Shown piece after piece: positions 2,416 to 20,000 of a DNA stretch of 20,000 bases; position 1 is the stretch's first letter, and every line of letters begins with the position of its first letter. Source of the stretch: Chiloscyllium plagiosum (lineage: Eukaryota). Below the pieces are notes generated by a model. It saw only the letters and a program-made list of their open reading frames with translations. It searched no databases and was not told the origin of the DNA. The position numbers and the translations under genes are program-made. The stretch is from contig NC_057755.1 of assembly GCF_004010195.1 (NCBI RefSeq), forward strand, positions 2,727,510 to 2,747,509. The letters are read 5' to 3'.

Positions 2416-3270
2416 ACAGTAGTAATTGAATATCCGTGATTTCATGTGTAAACACCCTAAACTCCTCAGTTAGATTCCAGTCTGTAGTTCACTCCGCAGT
2501 ACTGGTTAATCAATTGTGAACCACACTGTACCCCTCAACTATACTGCAATCTGTAACTCACTCCCTGGTACCTGTTACTCTATATATTAATTCCCCATCA
2601 CTCTTCCTCAATCAAAACTGCTCCTCTCCCTCCTCTCTTACCTCTCTTTCTGTCCTTCCTATAGCATCTAAAACTCAGAACAGTGATCAGCCTGTCCTGT
2701 CGTTGCCTCAGCCACATTTCTGTAATCGCTCTAACAGGCGGGTTCTATGATGCCATACACACCCTGAGTCCATCAGCTTTATCTATGCAGAAATAAATGC
2801 AGATTAATTCTTCAGAGTTACTTTGGGGTCTGAATTGCTGTTGTCTAACAGTAGTAATTGAATATCCGTGATTTCATGTGTAAACACCATAAACTCCTCA
2901 GTTAGATTCCAGTCTGTAGTTCACTCCCCAGTACTGGTTAATCAATTGTGAACCACACTGTACCCCTCAACTATACTGCAATCTGTAACTCACTCCCTGG
3001 TACCTGTTACTCTATATATTAATTCCCCATCACTCTTCCTCAATCAAAACTGCTCCTCTCCCTCCTCTCTTGCCTCTCTTTCTGTCCTTCCTATAGCATC
3101 TAAAACTCAGAACATTGAGCAGCCTGTCCTGTCCTTGCCTCAGTCACGTTTCTGTCATCGCTTTAACAGGCGATGCCATACACACCCTGAGTCCATCAGC
3201 CTTATCTGTACAGAAATAAATGCAGTTTAATCCTTCAGAGTTAGTTTGGGGTCTGAATTGCTGTTGTCTA
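2416..3270. repeat. Tandem duplication, 2 copies (2416-2847, 432 bp; 2848-3270, 423 bp)
   Basis: Both copies start acagtagtaattgaatatccgtg and end ggggtctgaattgctgttgtcta; copy 2 lacks 9 bp; otherwise only scattered substitutions. Confidence 0.95.
2428..2598 (+). repeat. ~2.5 units of 70-bp satellite A inserted in the CR1 endonuclease (duplicated at ~2860-3030)
   Basis: Contains ttagattccagtctgtagttcactcc; the flanking CR1 peptides rejoin across it (..GAVLIEEE | ITTVLS..). Confidence 0.85.
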
Positions 3271-4874: not shown

Positions 4875-5282
4875 ATTTCAGTCAGTATCTCACTTCTGGG
4901 CATCTGTTATTCAATATATAAACTTCCTAGATACCTTCGATAAGATTGCAGCCTGGATCTCACTCCTGGGTCGGTTATTCTATAATTTTTGCTCCATATA
5001 CCTGTTATTTTATACATAAAACCAATCTCCCAAACTCTCTATTAAATTCCAGCCCATATCTCTCTCCTGAGCATCTGTGATTCCATATGTAAACACCCTA
5101 AACTGCTGACTTAGATTCAAGTCTGCCTCTCACTCCCCATATTTGGTTAATCAATTGTGAACAACACTGTCCCCCTTGACTATACTCCTGTCTGTAACTT
5201 AATCCCTGGTACCTGTTACTCTGTATATTAATCCCCAATCCCTCAAATAGATTACAGACTGAAACTCACTCTGCGGTTTGTT
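4875..5282 (+). repeat. Degenerate array of 70-bp satellite A (~6 units); resumes at 7470-7520 after a CR1 insertion
   Basis: Recurring (t/a)agattcca-gtctg..ctcactcc at ~70-bp spacing; the unit phase continues after the CR1 tail (ataagc..catcgatgagattccagtccctaactca). Confidence 0.8.
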
Positions 5283-7469
5283 AAAGGGAACTATGGAGCT
5301 ATGAGGGAGGAGCTGGCCAAAGTTCAATGGTGCAATACCTTAGCAGGGATGACAGTGGAGGAACAATGGCGGATATTTCTGTGTACAATGCAGTAGTTGC
5401 AGGATCAGTTCATTCCAAAAAGGAAGAAAGATCCTAGGAGGAGGCATGGGTGGCCGTGGCTGACGAGGGAAGTTAAGAAACATATAAAGTCAAAAGAGAA
5501 AAAGTATAACGTAGGAAAGATAAGTGGGAAAACAGAGGACTGGGAAGCCTTTAAAGAACAACAGAGGAGTACTAAGAAGGAAATACGCAAAGAAAAAATG
5601 AGGTATGAAGGTAAACTGGCCAATAATATAAAGGAGGATAGTAAAAGCTTTTTCAGGTATGTGAAAGGCAAAAAAAATTGGTTAAGACTAAAATTGGGCC
5701 CTTGAAGACAGAAAGAGGGGAATATATTACGGGGAACAAAGAAATGGCAGAAGAATTGATTTGGTACTTTAGATATGTGTTCACTGGGGAAGACACAAGC
5801 AATGTCCCTGAGGTAACAGTGGCTGAAGGACCTGAACTGAAGGGAATTTATATTTGCCAGGAATTGATGTTGAAGAGACTGTTAGGTCTGAAGACTGCTA
5901 AGTCCCTGGGGCCTGATGGTCTACATCACAGGTTACTGAAGGAGGTGGCTCTAGAAATCGTGGAATGCTTTGGTGATTATTTTCCAGAGTTCGACAGATT
6001 CAGGATTGGAGGGTGGCTAACGTTATACCACTTTTTACGAAAGATGAGAAAGGAGAGAGGAAACAAGAAATTATAGACCAGTTAGTCTGACCTCAGTGGT
6101 GGGAAAGATGCTGGAGTATATTAAAAAGGATGAAATTACGACACATCTGGATAGTAATAACAGGATAGGTCAGAGTCAGCATGGATTTATGAAGGGGAAA
6201 TCATGCTTGACTAATCTTCTGGAATTTTTTGAGGATGTAACTCTGAAGATGGACGAGGGAGATCCAGTAGATGTAGTGTACCTGGACTTTCAGAAAGCTT
6301 TTGATAAAGTCCCACATAGGAGGTTAGTCAGCAAAATGAGGGCGCATGGTATTGGGGACAAAGTACTAACTTGGATTGAAAGTTGGTTGGCTGATAGGAA
6401 ACAAAGAGTAGTGATAAACGGCTCCACTTCAGAATGGCAGGCAGTGACCAGTGGGGTACCGCAGGGATCAGAACTGGGACTGCAGCTTTGTACAATATAT
6501 GTTCATGATATAGAAGATGGTATTAGCAATAACATTAGCAAATTTGCTGATGATACTCAGCTGGGTGGCAGGGTGAAATGTGAGGAGCATGTTAGGAGAT
6601 TACAGGGTGACCTGGACAAGTTAGGTGAGTGGTCAGATGCATGGCAGATGCAGTTTAATGTGGATAAATGTATGGTTATCCACTTTGGTGGCAAGAAAAG
6701 GAAGGCAGATTACTGTCGAAATGGAATCAATTTAGGAAAGGGGCAATACAAAGAGATCTGCGTGTTCATGTACACCAGTCAATGAAGGTAAGCATGCAGG
6801 TACAGCAGGTAGTGAAGAAGGCTAATAGCATGCTGGCCTTCATAACAAGAGGGATTGAGTATAGAAGCAAAGAGGTTCTTCTCAGCTGTACAGGGCGCTG
6901 GTGAGACAACACCTGGAATACTGTGTGCAGTTCTGGTCTCCAAATTTGAGGAAAGACATTCTGGCTATTGAGGGAGTGCAGCGGAAGTTCATGAGGTCAA
7001 TTCCTGAAATGGCGGGATTACCTTACCCTGAAAGACTGGAGCGACTGGGCTTGTATATCCTTGAGTTTAGAACACTGAGAGGGGATTTGATTGAGACATA
7101 TAAGATTATTAAAGGATTGGACGCTCTGGCGGCAGAAAACATGTTTCCGCTGATGGGTGAGTGCTGAACCAGAAGACACAGCTTCAAAATACGGGGGAGA
7201 CCATTTAGGACAGAAATGAGGAGAAACTTCTTCACCCAGAGAGTGGTGGCTGTGTGGAATGCTCTGCCCCTGACGGCAGTGGAGGCCCAGTCTCTGGATT
7301 CATTTAAGAAAGAGTTGGATAGAGCTCTCAAGGATAGGGGAATCAAGGGTTTTGGAGATAAGATAGGAACAGCATACTGATTAAGGATGATCAGCCATGA
7401 TCATTTTGAATGATGGTGCAGGCTCGAAGGGCAGAATGGCCTACTCCTGCACCTATTGTCTATTGTCTA
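5283..7469 (+). mobile_element. 5'-truncated CR1 LINE (ORF2 RT with frameshifts), intact 3' end
   Basis: Consecutive ORF2 pieces 5397..5705, 5678..6076, 6096..6785 (QHGF..KSCLTNL, YLDFQKAFDKVPH, GVPQGS, KFADD), 6668..6904, 6901..7167; 3' tail gaatggcctactcctgcacctattgtctattgtcta. Confidence 0.95.
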
Positions 7470-7619
7470 CAATGCATAAGCTCACTGAGACCATCGATGA
7501 GATTCCAGTCCCTAACTCAGTATAAACTAAACAGTTGAATATTACATTGGGAGCAGAAACAAAGAAAGCTCAAATTTAATTTTTACCAGATTCTGATTCT
7601 CCAAAAATATTTGATAAAG

Positions 7620-7749: not shown

Positions 7750-10700
7750 ATGGACGCCGCCGCCATTTTCTGCTCGGATCCGCTGATCCTGCACAGAAAC
7801 ATGTGCATCTGTGACCAGTTCAAACAGGTCTCCGGGGCCAGGGTAAACCGAAGCATGAGTGAGGCCATGCTCTTCGAGAAAAAAAGAAGGAACATATGTC
7901 AGGTATAGACAGGGTAAATCGAGTGAATTCTTAGAAGAGTAAAAAGAAAGTAGGAGTATGCTTAAGAGGGAAATCAGGAGGGCAAAACAGGGACATGAGA
8001 TAGCTTTGGCAAATAGAATTAAATAGAATCCAAAAGGGTTTTACAAATATATGAAGGACAAAAGGGTAACTAGGGAGAGAATAGGGCCCCCTCAAAGATC
8101 AGCAAGGAGGCCTTTGTGTGGAGCGACAGAAAATGCAGGAGATACTAAATGAATATTTTGCATCAGTATTTACTGTGGAAAAGGATATGGAAGATATAGA
8201 CTGTAGGGAAATAGATGGTGACATCTTGCAAAATGTCCAGATTACAGAGGAGGAAGTGCTCGGTATCTTGAAATGGTTAAAAGTGGATAAATCCCAGGAC
8301 CTGATCAGGTGTACCCGAGAAGTCTGTGGGAATCTAGAGAAGTGATTGTTGGGTCTCTTGCTGAGATATTTGAATCATTGATAGTCACAGGTGAGGTGCT
8401 GGAAGACTGGAGGTTGGCAAACGTGATGCCACTGTTTAAGAAGGGCGGTAAAGACAAACTGGGGAATGATAGACCAATGAGCCTGACCTCGGTGGTGGGC
8501 AAGTTGTTGGAGGGAATCCTGAGGGACAGGATGTACATGTATTTGGAAAGGCAAGGACTGATTTGGGATAGTCAACATGGCTTTGTGCGTGGAAAATCAT
8601 GTCTCACAAACTTGATTGAGTTTTTTGAAAAAGTAACAAAGAAGATTGATGAGGGCAGAGCAGTAGATGTGATCTATATGTCCCTTGATGTAAAGATCCC
8701 CCATTTAATATTTTATTCCTCAAGAGAGCATTGGTAGCTGAATTGCTTCCAGATCTCCAATAGAATGCAAGGAAAACAGAACAATAGCATGAATGGTTCT
8801 CTCATTTTCTTCCTCTTAAGGACTTTTCTTAATGGCAGATGGAGTTTAATTCAGATAAATGCGAGGTGCTGTATTTTGGGAAAGCAAATCTTAGCAGGAC
8901 TTATACACTTAATGGAAAGGTCCTAGGGATGGTTGCTGAACAAAGAGACCTTGGAGTGCAGGTTCATAGCTTCTTGGAAGTGGAATCGCAGGTAGATAGG
9001 ATAGTGAAGAAGGCGTTTGGTATGCTTTCCTTTATTGGTCAGAGTATTGAGTACAGGAGTTGGAAGGTCATGTTGCAGCTGTACAGGACAGTGGTTAAGC
9101 CACTGTTGGAATATTGCGTGCAATTCTGGTCTCCTTCCTATCGGAAAGATGTTGTGAAACTTGAAAGATTTCAGAAAAGATTTACAAGGGTGTTGCCACG
9201 GTTGGAGGATCTGAGCTACCGGGAAAGGCTGGATAGGCTGAGGCTGTTTTCCCTCGAGCGTCGGAGGCTGAGGGGTGACCTTACAGAGTTTTACAAAATT
9301 ATGAGGGGCATGGATAGGACAAATAGACAAAGTCTTTTTCCCTGTGGTCGGGGAGTCCAGAACGAGAGTGCATAGGTTTAGGGTGAGAGAGGAAAGCTAT
9401 AGAAGAGACCTAAGTTGCAACCTTTTCACGCAGAGGGTGGTACGTGTATGGAATGAGCTGTCAGAGGATGTGGTGGAGGCTGGTACAATTGCAACATTTA
9501 AGATGCATTTGGATTGCTATATGAATAGGAAAGGTTTGGAGGGATATTGGCCGGGTGCTGGCAGGTGGGACTAGTTTGGGTTGGGATATCTGGTTGGCGT
9601 GAACAGATTGGACCGAAGGGACTGTTTCCATGCTGTACATCTCTATGACTCTATAACAAGGCCGACCAATTCTCCATCCCCTTCACCATCAGGACTGACC
9701 ACCTGAAGGTGCTGGGTGTTTGATTTGGACGGGCTGGGGTGTGTACCAAGTCTTGGGAGGAGCGTATCAGGAAAGTGAGGCAGAAACTGGGCAGATGGGA
9801 GCAACGGTCACTCTCCAACGTGGGTGAAAACCTCGTCATCAGGTGTGAGGTACTGTCATTGTTGTTATATGTGGCACAGGCCTGGCCTAGACGTGTGCCA
9901 CTGCAGTCACCCGGGCCATCTTCCACTGCATATGGTCCGAAGGGACACCATGTATAAAGATCTGGGCAACGGGGGAAAAAACACCTCCAATGTCACCCTC
10001 ACCCTGATGGTCACCCTTGCATGTGGCTGCATCAAGCTGTGCGTGGATCCCCGGTACGCAAACACGAAGTGTCACTATGTTTTACCTGTCCCCGGTGTTG
10101 CAACGGATGGGCCTGGCCTCGATACCGCAGAACACTCCAAGTAGTTGGACCGTTCCGGATCACCTGTCCTTCGTGGAGAAATTTATGAAGAAAAGCAGAT
10201 TTGACCACAAGTCCATCCGGAAGTGGTCAGCACATAGTGTCCTTGAGACCCTTTGGGAAAAGGAGAGGGTGGATCCTATTGAGTGGTTCCCTGAGCAGAC
10301 TGTCAAAGTCATTTGGCAAAATGCCTCATCGCCAGAACTTTCCAACAAGCACGAAGACATGGCTTGGCAGGTGGTGAGAAGGGCTCTGCCTGTGATATCC
10401 TCCATGCATGCCCGGACTGTCTGCCCCACCGTATGCTGCCCTTGAAGCGGCTGCGGAGAGGTCGGGACTGTCACACACCTCCTTCTGGAATGTACCTATG
10501 CAGAAGAAGTCTGGAGAGGAATGCAGTGGTGTTTGTTGAGGTTCGTCCCGAGCAGCGGCGTGATGTGGGATGCTGTGCTCTGTGGCCTGTTCCCTGGGAC
10601 GCACACTGAGACGAACATCAACTGTGCCTGGAGGATCATCAACTCGGTGAAAGATACCTGTCTGAAACTTGTTGGTCTTCCAGCTGAAGGAGTTGACCCT

Positions 10701-11007
10701 GACTGAGTGTTGCAGACTAGCACATTCCAAGGTCCAGGATTACTTGTTGAGGAACGCGCTGAAGCTTGGGGAAAGACCACCGTGTAAGATCTGCCTGCCT
10801 AAGAAGAACAAGGGGCCCACTCAGTAATTGGGCCCCACTGACGCCTCAGCTAACCACCTGGATGGTTAACATATAGATGTGTATAGACAAATGATTAAGT
10901 CCGATCTCTGTCCATAAAGAAATACAATGTATACATATGAATGGGATCACCAATTGTATAGATATCAAAATATTTTTATGAATAAAGTCTATTTTTGAAA
11001 TGAAAAA
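7750..11007 (+). mobile_element. 5'-truncated Tx1-clade (L1 superfamily) LINE with 12-bp TSD, split by a CR1
   Basis: 7750-7875 reads MDAAAIFCSDPL..ICDQFKQVSGARVNRSMSEAMLF (decayed YMDD region) and resumes at ~9655 (ADQFSIPFTIRTDHLKVLGV); C-terminal CP*SGC..TVTHLLLEC zinc knuckle (~10436-10493); AATAAA 10981 plus A-tail; aatcactcgctg at 7738-7749 and 11008-11019. Confidence 0.9.
7877..9653 (+). mobile_element. 5'-truncated CR1 LINE nested in Tx1; RT core replaced by 150 bp of unrelated DNA
   Basis: ORF2 pieces 8118..8345, 8309..8680 (QHGFVRGKSCLTNL..DVIYM), 8839..9375 (MEFNSDKCEVLYFGK..LEYCVQFWSP), 9344..9574; tail ctctatgactcta. Confidence 0.93.
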
Positions 11008-11212
11008 AATCACTCGCTGCACTCTTCCTCACTTCCGTAGTCCCATGCCCTGGAAATAATTGGCAAACAAGCATCATACTTGGTGACACAAGCACATTAG
11101 GTTACTGTGATTAGTGAAGAAGGATGCGGAAAATAATGTTGAATACCTAAGTCGTGGGGTGAAGGAGGACTTGACTCAATATTACAGGGCCCTGGTAACA
11201 GGCAGATAGACT

Positions 11213-11867: not shown

Positions 11868-13070
11868 GAGGGAGCTTCACTCTTTATCTAACCCTGTGGT
11901 GTCCCTTCCTGGGGGTGGTTGATGGGGATTCAGGAAAGGCAGCTTTATTGAGTATCTCACCCCATTCTGTCCCTTTCCTGAGAGTGTTTGATGCGGGTAG
12001 TGTAGCAGGATCTTTATTTTGTAGCATTGGAACAGGAGTAGACCATTCGGCCCCTCAGTCCTTTCCCATCATTCAATCGGATGATGGCCGATCTGTGGCC
12101 TAACCCCATCTTCCTTCCTTTGGCCCATTCCCTCAATACCTTCACTGAACAAATATTTATCCATTGCAGATGATCCAGCATTGACTGCTGTTGTGGAAGA
12201 GAGTTCCAAACCTTTCCTATCCTTTGTGTAACCAAGCGCTTCCTAACATCTCTCCTGAATGCTCTGTGCCCGAATTCTCGGACTTTGTTCCCTCTTGTTC
12301 TGAAATCTACAACCAGCAGGGATCATTCATCTTGATCTAGCCTGTCTCATCCTGTTTATATCTTGAAGATCAGATCACCCCTTTACCTTCTCCATTCTAG
12401 AGGAAACAGGCCTCCTTTGTATAATCTCTCCCCAGAATGTAACCTATGAAGTCTAGGGTCATTCTTGTAAACCTCCTTTGTGCTCCCTCTTTGTATCCAT
12501 CCACTTGCTTGCACTGACAGAGATTTTCCCCTTAACCCAGTCTATCAACATCCCTTTGCAATTCCAAGGTATTATCTGCACTGTCGAAACGCTGCCTAAC
12601 TTTGTACCTAATCCCATGCATTGCTATCCTGGGAGTGGGTGTCAGGAACGGTATTGAGGAAGTTTTACCCTGCATCCAGCCCCATGTTGTACCTGCCCTG
12701 GGAGTTTTGGATGGGAACAGTGTAGAGGGAGATTAACTTCACCTAATCCCATGCTGTCCATGTCCTGGGACTGATTGATTGGGAAAGTCTCAAGGGACCT
12801 TTACTCTGCACGCAGTCCCATTCTCCCAGACTCTGGGAGATTCAGATGGAGGAAGTGTAGAGGGACACATATTCTATATCTAACCCAATGATGGAGCTGC
12901 CCTGAGTATTTGATGGGGATAGAATGGGAAAGTGGATTACTCAATCAGTATCTAACCCTACACTGGGCTGGGAATTTGAGAAGTTACAGTATAGAGAGAG
13001 CTTTACTCTGAAACTAAGCCATTCTCTAACTGCTCTGGTGTTTTAGATGGGACTGGTTTAGATATGGGGA
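11868..13070 (+). repeat. Degenerate ~69-bp satellite B array (~9-10 units), interrupted by a CR1
   Basis: Approximate consensus gagggagctttactctgtatctaaccccatgctgtccctgtcctgggagtgtttgatggggacagtgta; units at ~11868, 11936, 12005 and ~12590-13070. Confidence 0.82.
12024..12489 (-). mobile_element. CR1 3' fragment with probable 6-bp TSD
   Basis: EGAQRRFTRM (~12460-12490), TQRIGKVWNSLPQ (ORF 12014..12235), tail ggggccgaatggtctactcctg; tttgta at 12018-12023 and 12490-12495. Confidence 0.85.
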
Positions 13071-13454: not shown

Positions 13455-14990
13455 CTGAAACAGCTATCTGTTATTCTATATACAAACCACCTTAAAATCC
13501 TTGATTAGATTCCAGTCTGTAACTCACTCCCGGTCTCTGTTATTCTACATATCAAACCCACCTCAAATGCCTCGATAGGATTCCAGTCTGTAACTCACTC
13601 CCATACATCTGTGGCTGTTTATGTTCACCACCTGAAACCCCTTGATTAGATTCCAGACTGTACCTCACTCCTGGGTATCAATTATTCGGACATAATCCCC
13701 CAAACCCCTCAATTAGATCTCAGTTTGTAACTCACACTTGGTTTTTTTAAAATAAATTAACCCCGATCAATCAATTAGATTCTAACCTGTTGCCAACTCA
13801 CTTACATCTGTTACTCCATATATAAACCACATCGAAAGCTTGCTTAGATTTCACTCTGTAACTCACGCCTCAGTATCTGTTAATCCATGTATGCACCACA
13901 CCGAACCTGTTGATTAGATTTAGGTCTGTAAATCACTCCTGGGTATCTGTTCTTCCATTCACAAGCCATCCCAAAACCCTCAATTAGAAACCAGTCTGTA
14001 ACTTCTTCCCGGGAATCTGTTATTCTATACATAACCCACCTCAAACCCTTCAATAGGTTCCATTTTGAAACTTATGCTTGGATTTTATTTTAATGTAAAT
14101 AAACGCCTTGATACACCAATTAGATTCCAATCTGCAACTCACTCATATATATTCCATATATAATCCAACACAACATCCTTGATCAAATTCTAGTCTGTAA
14201 CTCACTCCTGAGTATCTGTTATTCCACATTGAAACAAACACAACCTCCTCGATCAGATTCCAGTCTGGAACTTACTCCTGAGTATCTGCTATTCCATATA
14301 TATAAACCAACTCAATCTCCTCGATCAGATTCCAATCTGCAACTCATTTCAGGTATCTGTTCTTCAACATATAACCCACCTCAGACATTTCAATTAGATT
14401 CCAGTTTGTAACTCGCTCCCAGGTATCTGTTATTCTGTACCAATACCATCTCCAGTCCCTCAGTTAGTTTCCAGTTTGCAACTCATACTTGGGTATTTTA
14501 CTTTTATATAAATAACCCCCCGATTCATCAATTAGATTCCAATCTGTAACTCATTCATGTATATTTGTTATTCCATATATAAACCAACCCGAACTCAAAA
14601 TTAGATTCCAGCCTGTAGCACACTCCTGGGTATCTATTATTCCATATATATAAACCACCCCAAATCCCTAAATTAGATTCTAGTCTGTAACTCACTCCTG
14701 AGGATTTGTCATTCTACAGGTAAGCCACCCCAAATCCTCTCAATTAAATTCCAGTCCGTTACTTACTCTTGGGTCTGTGCTATTCCATGTATAAAGCACC
14801 CCGAACAGCTCAATTCGATTCCAATTTGTAATTCATTCCCATATCTCTGTGACTCTGTAAATGAACCACCCCAAACTCCTGGATTAGATTCCAGTCTGCA
14901 ATTCACTCCAGGGTATCTGTTATTCTATCTATAAATCTCTCGATGAGATTTGAATCTGTAACTCACTTCCATGCATCCATCACTCTAAAT
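13455..14990 (+). repeat. Main array of 70-bp satellite A (~22 units)
   Basis: Approximate consensus ttagattccagtctgtaactcactcctgggtatctgttattccatatataaaccaccccaaacccctcaa, repeated at ~60-72-bp spacing. Confidence 0.95.
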
Positions 14991-15311: not shown

Positions 15312-15539
15312 CTACCCTGGTGAGCGTTGTGATGCTGTCCAGGGGGAAATGCAGTCTCTTCAGAACTTTCCCTGGTCTCCATGGCAGTGACAGATCTCCT
15401 GATCAATATAACAACCATTACATTGGATGATTTCTAGCCTATACTTTCTATGAGTTTGCTGCCCACCATTCCTGCAAATACATTCACCTCTGTCTTCATT
15501 TATTTAGCAACTTGTAGTTCCAGCTGGTTGATGGTCACT
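15312..15539 (+). pseudogene. GPR139/GPR142-like class A GPCR pseudo-exon (end of TM1 to TM3)
   Basis: TLVSVVMLSRGKCSLFR / frameshift / LVSMAVTDLLINIT..* ..SVFIYLATCSSSWLMVT matches the NLVAIVILSRGKCGLS..YLVAMAxxDLLV..SVWLTV pattern of shark GPR139-like receptors; cut off just before the DRF motif. Confidence 0.78.
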
Positions 15540-15850
15540 TGTTCCATATCCCTCCATTCCTTGCACATCCATATGATTATGGTGCTAAAAGCCCCTGAGA
15601 TACCCCTGTCGTATCTGCATCCATTACCATCCCTGATATTACGTTCCAGACACCTACTACTCTCTGTGGAAAACATCCTTGCTCTCACATCTTGTTTGAA
15701 CTTTCACCTTCAATGTATGCTCCATAGTTCAAGACACTACAATTCTGTGAACGAGATTCTGACTGTCAACTCTATTTATGCATCTCATAATTTTATAGAC
15801 TTCTACAGAATTTCCCCTCAGCCTCCGTTGCTCCAAGAAAAACAACCTCA
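15536..15850 (-). mobile_element. CR1 ORF2 C-terminal fragment
   Basis: LRLFFLEQRRLRGNSVEVYKIMRCINRVDSQNL (end of ORF 15729..16100) plus decayed downstream CR1 sequence. Confidence 0.85.
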
Positions 15851-16403
15851 GGGATGCAGCATCTGAACCTAGGGTCGCCATTGGTTGTATGAAGACTGTA
15901 TGCCGTTGTTCTGCCCGTTTTCGGGTTCGAGGAGTCCCCAGTATATATCTGCCCACTGTCCTTCTGCCATTGGTGATGTGTCCGGTGATAACATCATTCG
16001 GGATCCAGAGAGAATCATTGTCATAGAACAGTTGAAGGAATGGCCATTTGGAAAGGTCACTACCAGTCCATCTGGCCCGCACAGAACCGAGACCCCACAT
16101 CTTACCAGCAAGTCACGTCCCATCAGATTCACAGGGCATGCAGGTGATGAAATATACTGGTCACAAAAGGTCTGTCCGGCCACTGATGTGATCAGTAGCG
16201 ATGTCAAAGGCAGATTTTCTGGTTTACCCGAGAACCCTACTAACTGGACGCTAGAGGATGACATGCTTGACCGAGGTATATCACAAGTAATGGTAGAAAA
16301 TCTTGCACCCGTGTCAACCAAAAAAATACAGATTCTTGTCCATGACCCTCATTTGCATATAGGGGTCTGCCAATCCCACATGCCCCTGGGTTCTCGGGCC
16401 CTG
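15851..16403 (-). pseudogene. pro: Retroviral aspartic protease and start of the PR-RT spacer
   Basis: DPYMQMRVMDKNLYF(L)VDTGARFSTI..CPVNLMGRDLL; one extra T in a T7 run (16320-16326); TAG at 15869-15871 probably from TGG (QWRP*VQMLHP). Confidence 0.9.
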
Positions 16404-18569
16404 TCAATATTCGTACCCCTGCCCTTCTGGCATAGTTTGGGGGTACTGTCCTTGCACCTGGGCTGCAGTTGCATTTGGGACTTGGTAAGGCTGAACAGCC
16501 TGTTGAACAGGAGGCTGACTTGCGCGGACATACTGTCCTCGGATCAATACCTGGCCTCCCTGGGTTCCCCACAACACGGGACAATTCCTTCTCCAATGCC
16601 CGGGTTGGCCACATTCAAAACAGGTGCTGGGTGGCTGACCTCTGAATCCTCTGCGGCCCCTTCCTCTACCACGCATTCCTCCAGAAATACCTATATGCCT
16701 GTCCCCATATTGGGGGTAGGGTGGCATCCAATCAGGTGTTGGGTCTAATCTCAGCGGGTTGTTTTGTGGCAATGGCCGCTGAACCATCTGATTAGTCGTC
16801 TTTTGGGAGGCCTTCTTTGTATCATTAGCCCTCCTCCTAGCCTCATTGAGCTGTAACTTCAGCAACTGCACTTGAGCTGACTCATTGCTCTGTTTATCCT
16901 CATCCTGTTTTGTCCTGTAACGTTTCATGTGGTGCATCAAATGTTTTTCCCACTGTTCTGCACAACAACCTGGGATATCAGGATTACTCTCCATTGCCTC
17001 TTTTACTTCCTTAGGCATCCCTGCCATAATGGCATTCCTAAATAACGTAGTCTGTAGCTGACCCGACTCTGGATGGCTCCCCGCAGTATCTGTCCACGTG
17101 ACCTTACACCTAGCCAAAAAGGCAGACATATCCTCACCCTCCTTCATTGTGAAGGTGAGTGAGTGCATCGCTCCCGGTGGAATCGGGAATCTCTCCCTCA
17201 TTTCCTTCCCACACAGGTGGCATACTGCGTAAACGGGTCCGAATCAGGTAATAAGTTGGTCCCCGCAGACACTTCAATCTGCTGTATTTCCCACATATTC
17301 AATTGCTTGCCCAACAATGCTCTCCAATTACCCATAGCTAACTTGTGCCCTAGTGTATATTGGCAAAATTTAGTCATTCAAGGCCCACCTCCCTCCATGG
17401 ATGGGGGCATTTTATCCAGGATGCAATTCATATCAGTATATGTGAAGGGCTGATAAATATCCCCCAGATAAGAGCCTCTGTAAATTAATGGCATTTGGTG
17501 GTGCTGATACTTTATCGGTTGTCGTAATGTGTCTCTTTGATGCAGGTTGTAACTTGGTTCAGGTAGGGACTTCATTGGAGGGCCATGTTCGGTATGCATT
17601 GTGAGTGAGCCTTAAAAAGTGACTGGGTAGGTGTTTGGATCATCGTCTGTCAGGGATCCTTCGTCCTCAAAGTCTGTACTACTTTTAGACTCCTCCCCAT
17701 CCAATTTCTCTCTATCCCGTTCTTCCCTCAAATCTCTCCTTCTTCTGTCTGAGAACCCATCATCCAAAAACTGACCTGAATCATGTAATCTTCACCTCTT
17801 TTTATTCTCAAAACTATACGGTGTCGAATAAGCATCTGGCTCCTGCACTGCTAAATATCTCCCCTGTTTTGGCTGTTCTTTGTTTCTACTGTACGTCATT
17901 ATCACCGTGCTTGCTTACTTCACTTCCTTAACTTTCTGTTCAGCTTCTAGTGTTAGTTTTTCTACTTTTCTGATACTTTCTTCTACAGCTTCCGCTTGTT
18001 CCTACTTCTTGCACATCTAACACCCCTTCTTGAACAGACATAAGTGGCATTTGCATTACAGGATATGGAGGCGGTGATTGTACCACAGGCAATTTAGGAT
18101 ATAATGGTGCGGATGGTCCTGCATTTTCTGTCTCCTTTGTCAGTTCTATTGTAGAGGTACCACCTACTTTCTTTTGTAATGTTTCTACCGCCATACAGGC
18201 CAACGTCATGTTATGCAAATGAATCCTCCTCTCTTCATTCTCCCCGCCTTCTTTTGTCCACTTTCTTCTAACTAATATTGACCCTTTCTTTCCCTTCATG
18301 TGTCCTTCTACTTCTAATTTAGCTTGCTCTTCTGCTTTTCCTAAAAACAGTGACAATTTCTTCCTCTCCTCATCTTTAGGGACTTTGCCCTGTTTCTGTA
18401 ATTCCTCCCAAATCTTATCATATTTCTCCATCATTGTTTTTTGTTTGTTCTTTGCAAGCCCACTGACTAATTGACTTCTGGCTTTACCCCACTGCTGTTT
18501 TACGGGCAACATTAAATCGGAATAACATCCTCCGTATTCTTCACACTCTTTATCAAACTCCCCTTCCAT
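16404..18569 (-). pseudogene. gag: Retroviral gag (~720 codons) with 2 frameshifts (~18000, ~17203) and 4 in-frame stops
   Basis: PSAPLYPKL..PPPY (18063-18116); capsid MPLIYRG..YQPF..DM..ILDKMPP..EGGGP; MHR-like KEGEDMSAFLARC; RG-rich tract; CFECGQPGHWRRNC (16581-16622); TGA at 16404-16406. Confidence 0.9.
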
Positions 18570-18874
18570 TTTATGTATTTTTATTTTTATTCAGTCAGTT
18601 GGTTTGGATATAAATATAACCGAGCAACCAACCCAATCAGAGACAAATCCGGTGGGTAGTCAGTTTGGATGGAGTACACCCGAACAACGGACTATTTCAG
18701 CGAGGTTTATCAGCAGTTTCGTTGTCACCGTTAGGTTTCCACTACCGACTCTCTCTCACTGAAACACCACCGTCTCTGTCTTCAAAACGCTACTGGCTTT
18801 TCTGACACCCTCCGTACAGTCCCCAATGTAAGTTTTAAAACATACAACACAATCATACACCACAATTTGTGAGC

Positions 18875-19092
18875 GTTGCTTTTATGAGATCCTGCTCAAT
18901 GGACTTTAAACCTCCTCACACTTACGTACCATGTTGCTTTTATGGGGACTCTAACCCCAAGGGACTTTAAACCTGTACGTATTAAACTTTGTTGCTTTTC
19001 TGGGGACTCTAACCCCATGGGACTTTAAACCCGCACGTACCTTGTTGCTTTTGTGGGGACTCTAACCCCACGGGACTTTAAACCTGTACGTA
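18875..19092 (-). repeat. Leader tandem repeat: three ~52-58-bp units plus one degenerate unit
   Basis: gttgctttt-N-tggggactctaacccca-N-gggactttaaacc at ~18933, 18991, 19043; degenerate copy at ~18875. Confidence 0.9.
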
Positions 19093-19198
19093 CTATATCA
19101 ATACTTTATCCACTTACTATTACAAGGACACTTGCAGTATAATGACAACAATCAATTTAGTATCTCCAGTTGCAGAACTTCGATATAAACAGGCGTCG

Positions 19199-19207
19199 GC
19201 TCACCTT
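19199..19207 (-). promoter_or_regulatory. Probable major splice donor of the ERV
   Basis: AAG|GTGAGC on the minus strand, ~90 nt downstream of the PBS. Confidence 0.6.
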
Positions 19208-19295
19208 TTTTTATGCGGCGCCGCTTGTTGTTGTCATCAAACGTCAGCTGTCCGTTGTTTCTATTTTTCTCTCTTTCCGTCACTTCTCTGTCTTC

Positions 19296-19313
19296 ATCAC
19301 GTCGGGGTCACCA
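19296..19313 (-). promoter_or_regulatory. Primer binding site, tRNA-Trp
   Basis: TGGTGACCCCGACGTGAT, the same 18-mer as the RSV/ALV tRNA-Trp PBS; separated from the LTR-terminal CA by a 3-nt spacer. Confidence 0.95.
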
Positions 19314-19316
19314 ATT

Positions 19317-19873
19317 TGTTGGACTTTGGCTCAATCTACAAACTTACTTTCTTCTATGTGTGAGCCAAGTCCTGCGTGTTCTTTTAAATGAAGCAATAGG
19401 AGAAGATATTCGGTCTCACACTCTTAATTTATTTTAAACAGTAAGTGGATAAAGCATTCAGAGCTCTGGGTCTAAATCTCTTTGTCCCTGACAAACTACA
19501 AAGTGTGCCAGTTCAAAATGTAAGACCCTGTTATGTCCCTGACCCAGTCTTTTTATACAATAAAAAACGTCATACAATCACTGAGGTAGAATTATCTTCT
19601 GATTGGCTGTTGATCTGACTCCATTCCCCGCCTCCTCGCATTCCCAGATGTCCGACCCCACGTGACCTTCTTTTGCCTGCGAAACGGAGGACCACGTGGT
19701 CCCCGCGCGCCTCCGCCGCGTGAAACAGAACATCACGTGACCCCGCTTTGCAACGGAGCACAGCACCACGTGACCTTGTTCTGCGCGCACGCATAACGGA
19801 GCACCCCAAAAGGCTTCCGAATGCCGAGTGTATTTATACTCGCAGCCAGCCATAAGTAAGTCATATATTTACA
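19317..19873 (-). repeat. 5' LTR (557 bp)
   Basis: Starts TGTAAAT at 19873 (Tx1 boundary) and ends CCAACA at 19317; CCAAT 19606-19602, TATAAAA 19557-19551, AATAAA 19433-19428 in the expected order. Confidence 0.9.
19551..19805 (-). promoter_or_regulatory. U3 promoter/enhancer: TATA, CCAAT, GC box, four CACGTG E-boxes
   Basis: CACGTG at 19659, 19693, 19734, 19767; ccccgcc at 19626; aacggag three times; CpG-rich. Confidence 0.75.
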
Positions 19874-20000
19874 GTACGTAGTGACACTTGGTGTTTGCGT
19901 ACCGGGGATCTACGCACAGCTTGATGCAGCCACACACAAAGGAGGCCATCAGGGTGAGGGTGCCATTGGGTGTATTTTTTCCCCCGTTGCCCAGATCTTT
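19874..20000 (-). mobile_element. Second Tx1-family copy, the ERV integration target; runs off the window
   Basis: Reverse complement aligns with ~9956-10080 (aaagatctgggcaacggggg..ggctgcatcaagctgtgcgt..gtgtcacta). Confidence 0.92.

Follow-up and report, generated by a model that had tools for sequence, protein, structure and literature searches.

A decayed provirus in the bamboo shark Chiloscyllium plagiosum, a probable member of the SSSV/ZFERV-type class I endogenous retroviruses

Among described retroviruses, those of the SSSV/ZFERV type offer the closest comparison for the element considered here. An in-frame UGA at the gag/pro junction has been reported for SSSV, ZFERV and RMEV (PMC13517186; here and below, published sources are cited for the accessible part of their text). 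Endogenous retroviruses (ERVs) have been reported in six cartilaginous fish, including Chiloscyllium (bioRxiv 2021.11.23.469661), and according to Xu et al. (2018, PMC6001957) host switching has spread the retroviruses of cartilaginous fish over many parts of the phylogeny. In the elephant shark, three lineages, CmiERV I-III, are described. Two of them are epsilon-like, the elements group with SnRV or with walleye and amphibian epsilonretroviruses, and both complete copies have a 3-nt spacer between the long terminal repeat (LTR) and the primer binding site (PBS) (Han, 2015, PMC4422223). Here, we describe an element on the minus strand of a 20,000-nt stretch of Chiloscyllium plagiosum DNA (contig NC_057755.1, positions 2,727,510 to 2,747,509), hereafter the window. 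With a probability of roughly 0.87, it is best explained as the 5′ half of a dead class I provirus belonging to a multi-copy SSSV/ZFERV-type family.

The best named protein matches of the element come from Chiloscyllium punctatum, then from the ray Narcine bancroftii and then from teleosts, in agreement with the preliminary description, which had proposed a shark ERV. The window gag aligns in three pieces to C. punctatum proteins, with 71-91% identity, and the protease-spacer piece is 88% identical over 49 residues to the C. punctatum protein P0016, a pairing supported at 99/87 in the tree. P0016, encoded on a 3-kb contig, continues into the reverse transcriptase (RT). The C. punctatum ERV proteins GCC28174, XP_072422893, GCC39382 and GCC23742 thus represent the same family (71-91%), and those of N. 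bancroftii a sister family (44-62%). All are annotated as hypothetical or uncharacterised, and the window adds to them an LTR, a PBS and a leader.

Classification makes use of these relatives, the window itself having no RT. The full-length relative P0004, 58% identical to the window protease piece, contains protease, RT, connection, RNase H and integrase domains and a weak MLVIN_C match. Its best PDB matches are to a gammaretroviral-type RT-RNase H, p80 (E 6e-108), with Ty3 at 1e-35. A degenerate tether, that is, an RNase-H-like RT-connection domain followed by a separate RNase H, distinguishes Retroviridae from Metaviridae; it is present in 28/28 aligned relatives, in a region beyond the truncated window copy, and MLVIN_C in 22/28. 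An RT phylogeny, as the preliminary description had proposed, was run on the relatives by a quick method with 38 chosen stored proteins and 24 loci, no verified ZFERV sequence being included. The family did not group with Gypsy. It lies inside the retroviral clade (98), separated from the five loci that are most distant, and is grouped with the SSSV-type locus L021 at 84-85 SH-aLRT, a weak value from a quick tree. By proxy of P0016 and its relatives, the RT therefore falls with those of gamma- and epsilonretroviruses. WDSV (L023) is on a separate branch and is 30% identical to P0016, so that the Pol does not go with that of Epsilonretrovirus. The marks of Alpharetrovirus (two CCHC boxes, a frameshifted pol and a class II RT) are not found either. 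In a 24-locus database, the window capsid piece matches the WDSV and SSSV-type gags with E values of 3e-6 and 3e-5. A scan of viral contigs gave four loci with an alignment and none with a single protein. The family works like the class I elements of the SSSV/ZFERV type and is most likely one of them, which upholds the earlier assignment to this type rather than to Gypsy; it is outside Epsilonretrovirus proper, Alpharetrovirus and Metaviridae.

The likeness to SSSV-type L021 extends to a single CCHC box, an in-frame gag-pro UGA, a splice donor shortly after the PBS, a long protease-RT spacer and membership of the same broad RT group. However, the two are distant in sequence (27% in gag, 31% in protease, 35% in spacer plus the N-terminal part of RT), and L021 uses another primer, which we take to be Met, and has no duplex between R and the leader (best 12 bp; see below). 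In 46/52 stored Pol relatives, a number that includes near-identical members, the protease-RT spacer carries two H-x-T/S motifs; the window copy is cut before the first of them. Matches of the spacer to 2H proteins, at 0.79-0.81 (Atlas), are leads only. The spacer pattern fits a CNPase domain, as cited from Basta et al. (2009) in PMC4977317. In P0016, the 2H-like motif has Tyr at residue 58, where its first His would stand, whereas both His are retained in the relatives from Narcine and from teleosts.

The coding part of the window copy is broken and truncated (Table 1). In gag, the frame changes near 17996 and 17204, and premature stops occur at 17917, 17794, 17614 and 17380; in pro, the frame changes near 16320 and a stop stands at 15871. 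This copy is dead: its frame is broken three times, five of its stops are premature, and it is truncated. The proposed single-CCHC gag followed by a protease is nevertheless recognisable, the protease by its match to PF00077 (RVP, E 1.6e-7); its best PDB match is 3nr6, protease p14, of the gammaretroviral type. The TGA ending gag shares its frame with the 28 pro codons that come next, and the junction reads UGACAG. The arrangement also occurs in L001, L002, L003 and L021. As in class I elements, gag and pro thus form one frame split by a candidate readthrough stop and the nucleocapsid has a single CCHC box; as in the SSSV/ZFERV type, the stop is UGA and not UAG.

The full LTR anatomy announced in the preliminary description is confirmed: the LTR has TG/CA ends, four CACGTG boxes, a GC box (19632, minus strand), CCAAT, TATAAAA and AATAAA. 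It had also been called intact, and this holds only in the sense that the motifs are present, a second LTR for comparison being absent. The R/U5 border is located by raw RNA reads (organism A) of related copies: 14 of them carry a poly(A) tail ending at 19409 and 23 one ending at 19412, some 16-19 nt beyond AATAAA. Read depth is 29-41 across 19404-19711 and 1-7 over much of the leader and gag. Because just 1/227 reads is at least 99% alike to the window, the reads are assigned to sister copies and not to the window locus. The observed/expected ratio of CpG is 0.92 in the LTR (19317-19873), 0.86 in the leader (18570-19295), 0.39 in gag and 0.31 across the remaining window.

Three nucleotides after the CA of the LTR, the PBS is complementary to the 3′ end of tRNA-Trp over 18/18 positions, for a chance expectation of about 3e-7; the perfect Trp site announced for the element is thereby secured. 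The site is identical to the complement of the 3′ end of human tRNA-Trp (bioRxiv 10.1101/400127). Since both complete CmiERVs have non-Trp primer sites (supplement of PMC4422223, motif search), the window element differs from them. As a mark of novelty, in contrast, the Trp primer is weakened. Two other aquatic class I ERVs have Trp and Trp-like sites. L003 has a 14/14 Trp core (position 8528) two bases past its LTR end, with an AGGTGAG donor 123 nt further on; it bears an env (TLV_coat, E 1.5e-13), its RT is 49% identical to that of P0004 and its family has ZFERV's UGACGA junction. L005 has a degenerate Trp-like site (position 10941). A scan with the 18-mer (at most three mismatches, loci of at least 3.5 kb) did not return these two sites; later scans did. 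In HERV-W, also class I, 58% of the primer sites are of the Trp type; the authors call PBS type a poor marker (PMC5016936). Trp priming is thus recurrent in aquatic class I ERVs and not special. HERV-W and the avian ALV/EAV have a Trp-type PBS in common with the window element and show no close protein kinship with it; the shared primer choice is convergent. No tRNA gene or Rfam family was found in the window (Rfam, ARAGORN), and ARAGORN on 60/86 motif loci gave no tRNA-Trp.

As to the literature, none of the accessible texts that the searches found, PMC8672886 among them, describes a shark ERV primed by tRNA-Trp; the supplements of bioRxiv 2021.11.23.469661, Repbase and Dfam were outside the search. 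Those papers matching the PBS 18-mer whose accessible text was considered are not on fish. The main text of a zebrafish ERV survey contains neither "Trp" nor "tRNA", and in 12 of the 14 supplementary files of Wang and Han (2023, PMC10435555) Chiloscyllium is named in the genome list only.

The history of the copy can be read from its borders. Similarity to a LINE (long interspersed nuclear element), 90% to the window copy at 9956-10080, starts immediately outside the 5′ edge of the LTR. At 19872, contigs of three runs, numbering 60, 53 and 6, diverge from the window into an unbroken LINE, so that this edge is a true integration junction. This LINE is presumably of the L1/Tx1 clade. At its other end, the element is cut at 15851, where it adjoins a fragment which we take to be of CR1 type and which is itself cut near 15540. 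One contig from organism C extends 391 bases past 15850, consistent with other copies continuing beyond the truncation point. In the three contig runs, all 30 bins are covered and up to 39 distinct contigs occur at one variant site, which points to a multi-copy family; contig depth is not a copy number. Three organisms contain at best 30%, 20% and 6% of the sampled words. An indexed search listed no RNA data set among those with the element, a result without bearing on expression. The copy inserted into the L1/Tx1-type LINE; all of its sequence 3′ of 15851 was lost afterwards, and it decayed.

The life cycle of the parent virus may be reconstructed along the following lines. Transcription would start from the U3 TATA box and polyadenylation would take place at the R/U5 border, as shown for sister copies. 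Minus-strand synthesis would be primed with tRNA-Trp, in keeping with the complementarity of the PBS. Readthrough of the UGA ending gag, by analogy with the relatives, would yield Gag-Pro-Pol, gag and the start of pro being in the same frame. The parent Pol would comprise, after the order seen in relatives, protease, a 2H-phosphoesterase-like spacer, RT, tether, RNase H and integrase. Late domains of the PSAP, LYPKL and PPPY type act in budding, and the parent virus would splice to env and bud through the three that are clustered in gag. The donor arrangement is repeated in the env-bearing L021 (+153) and L003 (+123), and env also occurs in P0146, all three being distant members of the clade. 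An env-bearing ancestor is plausible.

Table 1. Features of the element and of its borders (window positions)
Feature	Position	Strand	Basis
5′ LTR, TG...CA, 557 bp	19317..19873	-	sequence analysis; outer boundary from contig breakpoints
Four E-box-like CACGTG units arrayed in U3	19659..19772	-	motif scan; putative function
CCAAT box (19606-19602) and TATA box, TATAAAA (19557-19551); promoter candidate	19551..19606	-	motif scan
AATAAA (19433-19428) and sister-copy poly(A) sites (19412, 19409); R/U5 border	19409..19433	-	motif and RNA reads
R-region arm of 22-bp long-range duplex	19437..19458	-	sense RNA pairing
PBS, 18/18 complementary to tRNA-Trp 3′ end	19296..19313	-	18-mer match, 3 nt past LTR CA
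Predicted splice donor, AGGTGAG consensus, 107 nt after PBS start	19199..19206	-	motif
Leader arm of 22-bp long-range duplex	19100..19121	-	sense RNA pairing
Leader repeats of 53-58 nt, three in tandem, with one small GGGG/CCCC hairpin per repeat; packaging region candidate	18923..19093	-	putative role
gag, broken, ending in TGA (16406-16404)	16404..18569	-	tblastn with P0022/P0023/P0024; stop list
Clustered late-domain motifs PSAP, LYPKL, PPPY	18063..18116	-	motif search
Single CCHC zinc knuckle (nucleocapsid)	16578..16625	-	Pfam PF00098, E 2.6e-7
pro (DTG 16315-16307) and first ~50 residues of protease-RT spacer; truncated at 15851	15851..16403	-	PF00077; tblastn
L1/Tx1-type LINE fragment, host-side flank and integration target, outside element	19874..20000	-	90% inverted match to 9956-10080
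CR1-type LINE fragment adjoining truncation point, outside element	15546..15850	-	63% to 9238-9547; contig breakpoints 15851 and 15538-15539

The relatives also bear on how the lineage came to its hosts. We consider it probable that it reached elasmobranchs by host switching from a marine-teleost virus pool, the direction being the one that we propose. The N-terminal part of the shark RT is 84% identical to that of an ERV of the mackerel Scomber scombrus (P0047) and 82% to those of Echeneis naucrates (P0046) and of the Epinephelus lanceolatus cluster (P0004/P0033), whereas over 146 stored Pol proteins the median is 57% and only five reach 75%. The shark and Scomber elements are sisters (95 in the RT tree, 94/91 in a short RT tree). 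Their linker between matrix and capsid, a variable region, still aligns (49% over 61 aa, 36% over 174 aa), and matrix is alignable across these teleost ERVs. A tree without Scomber unites the teleost ERVs with those of shark and ray in a supported clade (95/96), the host class being different. An approximately unbiased (AU) test on 21 rows comprising protease, spacer and the N-terminal part of RT, Scomber excluded, rejects (p 2e-5) the host-congruent, basal position in which shark plus ray lie outside the elements of teleosts. On both sides the proteins lie on scaffolds of 3-50 Mb, which makes contamination unlikely, although P0016 itself is on its 3-kb contig. As Xu et al. (2018, PMC6001957) already state the pattern, the probable shark-teleost switch is an instance of it; they gave it in general terms only, and the present family makes a specific, testable case. 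Through this family, the SSSV/ZFERV-type clade also comes to include bamboo sharks and an electric ray, and a defined LTR, primer site and poly(A) site come with it. The presence of the sharksucker remora, E. naucrates, among the nearest relatives offers a possible ecological bridge; mackerel and grouper are equally close, so that this is a lead only.

Several observations weigh against parts of this account. The 20,000-nt window contains no RT, integrase, env or second (3′) LTR, and no env was seen for this family. The placement depends on similarity in gag and protease and on an overlap of 49 residues with P0016, links that recombination could decouple. RNA structure 3′ of the UGA is not significant (z -0.5), with similar values in L021, L001 and L002. 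With regard to the host switch, a 157-column RT AU test does not reject a basal shark position (p 0.113), monophyly of shark plus ray is not rejected (p-AU 0.297), the outgroup branches are long, and the Scomber row overlaps the window piece in gag only, not in protease.

Several other explanations may be envisaged. Since neither env nor a close relative (RT above 70%) with a DNA context showing env was found, and since Gag begins with Met-Glu, lacking Gly at position 2, the same class I family might have spread as an env-less intracellular retrotransposon, with splice donor and late domains as leftovers. Yet three late-domain motifs have been kept, the donor is placed as in the env-bearing L021 and L003, TLV_coat is found in a Gasterosteus relative, and the SSSV-type Gag open reading frame (ORF) likewise has no N-terminal Gly; we regard this scenario as rather unlikely. 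Also unlikely, in our judgement somewhat more so, is that the lineage is an old elasmobranch resident dating from the shark-ray split, with the teleost look-alikes derived from it or resulting from slow evolution. The ray Narcine does have a relative, with 44-59% identity in gag and 62% in protease, and the two tests just mentioned leave room for such a history. Against it, the longer alignment rejects the basal position, and shark-ray protease identity (62%) is about equal to shark-teleost identity (58-60%). The Narcine copies look young, because they are 93-98% alike and have long open frames, and the named chondrichthyan matches, which depend on annotation, are confined to Chiloscyllium and Narcine.

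The two remaining explanations concern classification. A Gypsy/Metaviridae LTR retrotransposon could likewise have a single CCHC box and lack env in the window, and one relative is automatically named "Gypsy retrotransposon integrase-like". This origin is nonetheless very improbable, indeed largely refuted by the RVP protease with its gammaretroviral-type PDB match, by the capsid piece matching WDSV and SSSV-type gags, by the tether, RNase H and MLVIN_C found in the relatives, and by the RT tree. Finally, the Trp primer could signal kinship or recombination with avian alpharetroviruses: the 18-mer is used as the primer site of ALV/EAV (PMC5029493) and occurs in 9/86 loci of a viral collection, most of which look like avian leukosis/sarcoma viruses. 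The identity of the sites is explained by the conservation of the tRNA end. Such kinship is contradicted by the gag and pol trees, as well as by the single CCHC box, the in-frame UGA in place of a frameshift (PMC13517186), the class I Pol of the relatives and the recurrence of Trp sites in L003 and L005, and we consider it hardly credible.

Turning back to the SSSV/ZFERV-type provirus, its leader has a feature of its own. In the sense RNA, R (19458-19437) can form 22 unbroken pairs, two of them G-U, with the leader (19121-19100), and the R arm stops three bases before AAUAAA. Among 60 shuffled sequences no run exceeded 16, and on the antisense strand the longest was 15. Most of the pairs have a probability close to 1, and the fold of the region has a z of -4.7. 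The two G-U pairs, which by our own estimate would arise by chance in about 1 case in 4, speak only weakly for selection. No comparable duplex was found in L021 or L023 (best 12 bp), in L002/L003 or in L004; in L005, R and leader pair over 17 bp, including two G-U. The hexamer AAUAAA stays 0.94-0.98 unpaired, which gives no support to the idea that the duplex simply masks it. By analogy, the duplex would most likely act as a long-range interaction shaping the packaging leader; long-range leader interactions are known in other retroviruses, mostly via U5 (PMC13736810). It may also be a chance inverted duplication. The duplex lends itself readily to structure probing in the leader of a fish retrovirus. 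A bolder combination, in which a recent percomorph-elasmobranch jump (82-84% RTs) gave a virus still transcribed from some loci in sharks, whose R-leader clamp, able to form at the 5′ end only, serves as a switch either for packaging or to silence the 5′ poly(A) site, appears doubtful to us. The leader repeat region folds at z -1.6, which is not significant, and no accessory ORF was recognised in the leader. An AGUAAGU donor-like motif lies inside the leader arm of the duplex.

Other sequences in the window belong to repeats. A second L1/Tx1-type LINE 3′ part with poly(A), of the same family as the integration target, lies at 9660-11010 (plus strand); a weak zf-RVT match (E 0.052) falls on this other copy. 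Two long CR1-type LINE 3′ fragments with RVT_1 matches are found at 5290-7470 and 7890-9650 (plus strand), and inverted CR1-type fragments at about 760-2040. Degenerate tandem satellite blocks with a unit of about 70 bp occupy 13467-14990, 2416-3025 and 4875-5290, and G-rich inverted units near 11870-13030 are apparently related to this satellite. Among the stored proteins, a 51-aa record named "Enterobacter cloacae DUF2511" (P0240) clusters with fish ERV Gag and is probably a contaminant or a clustering artefact.

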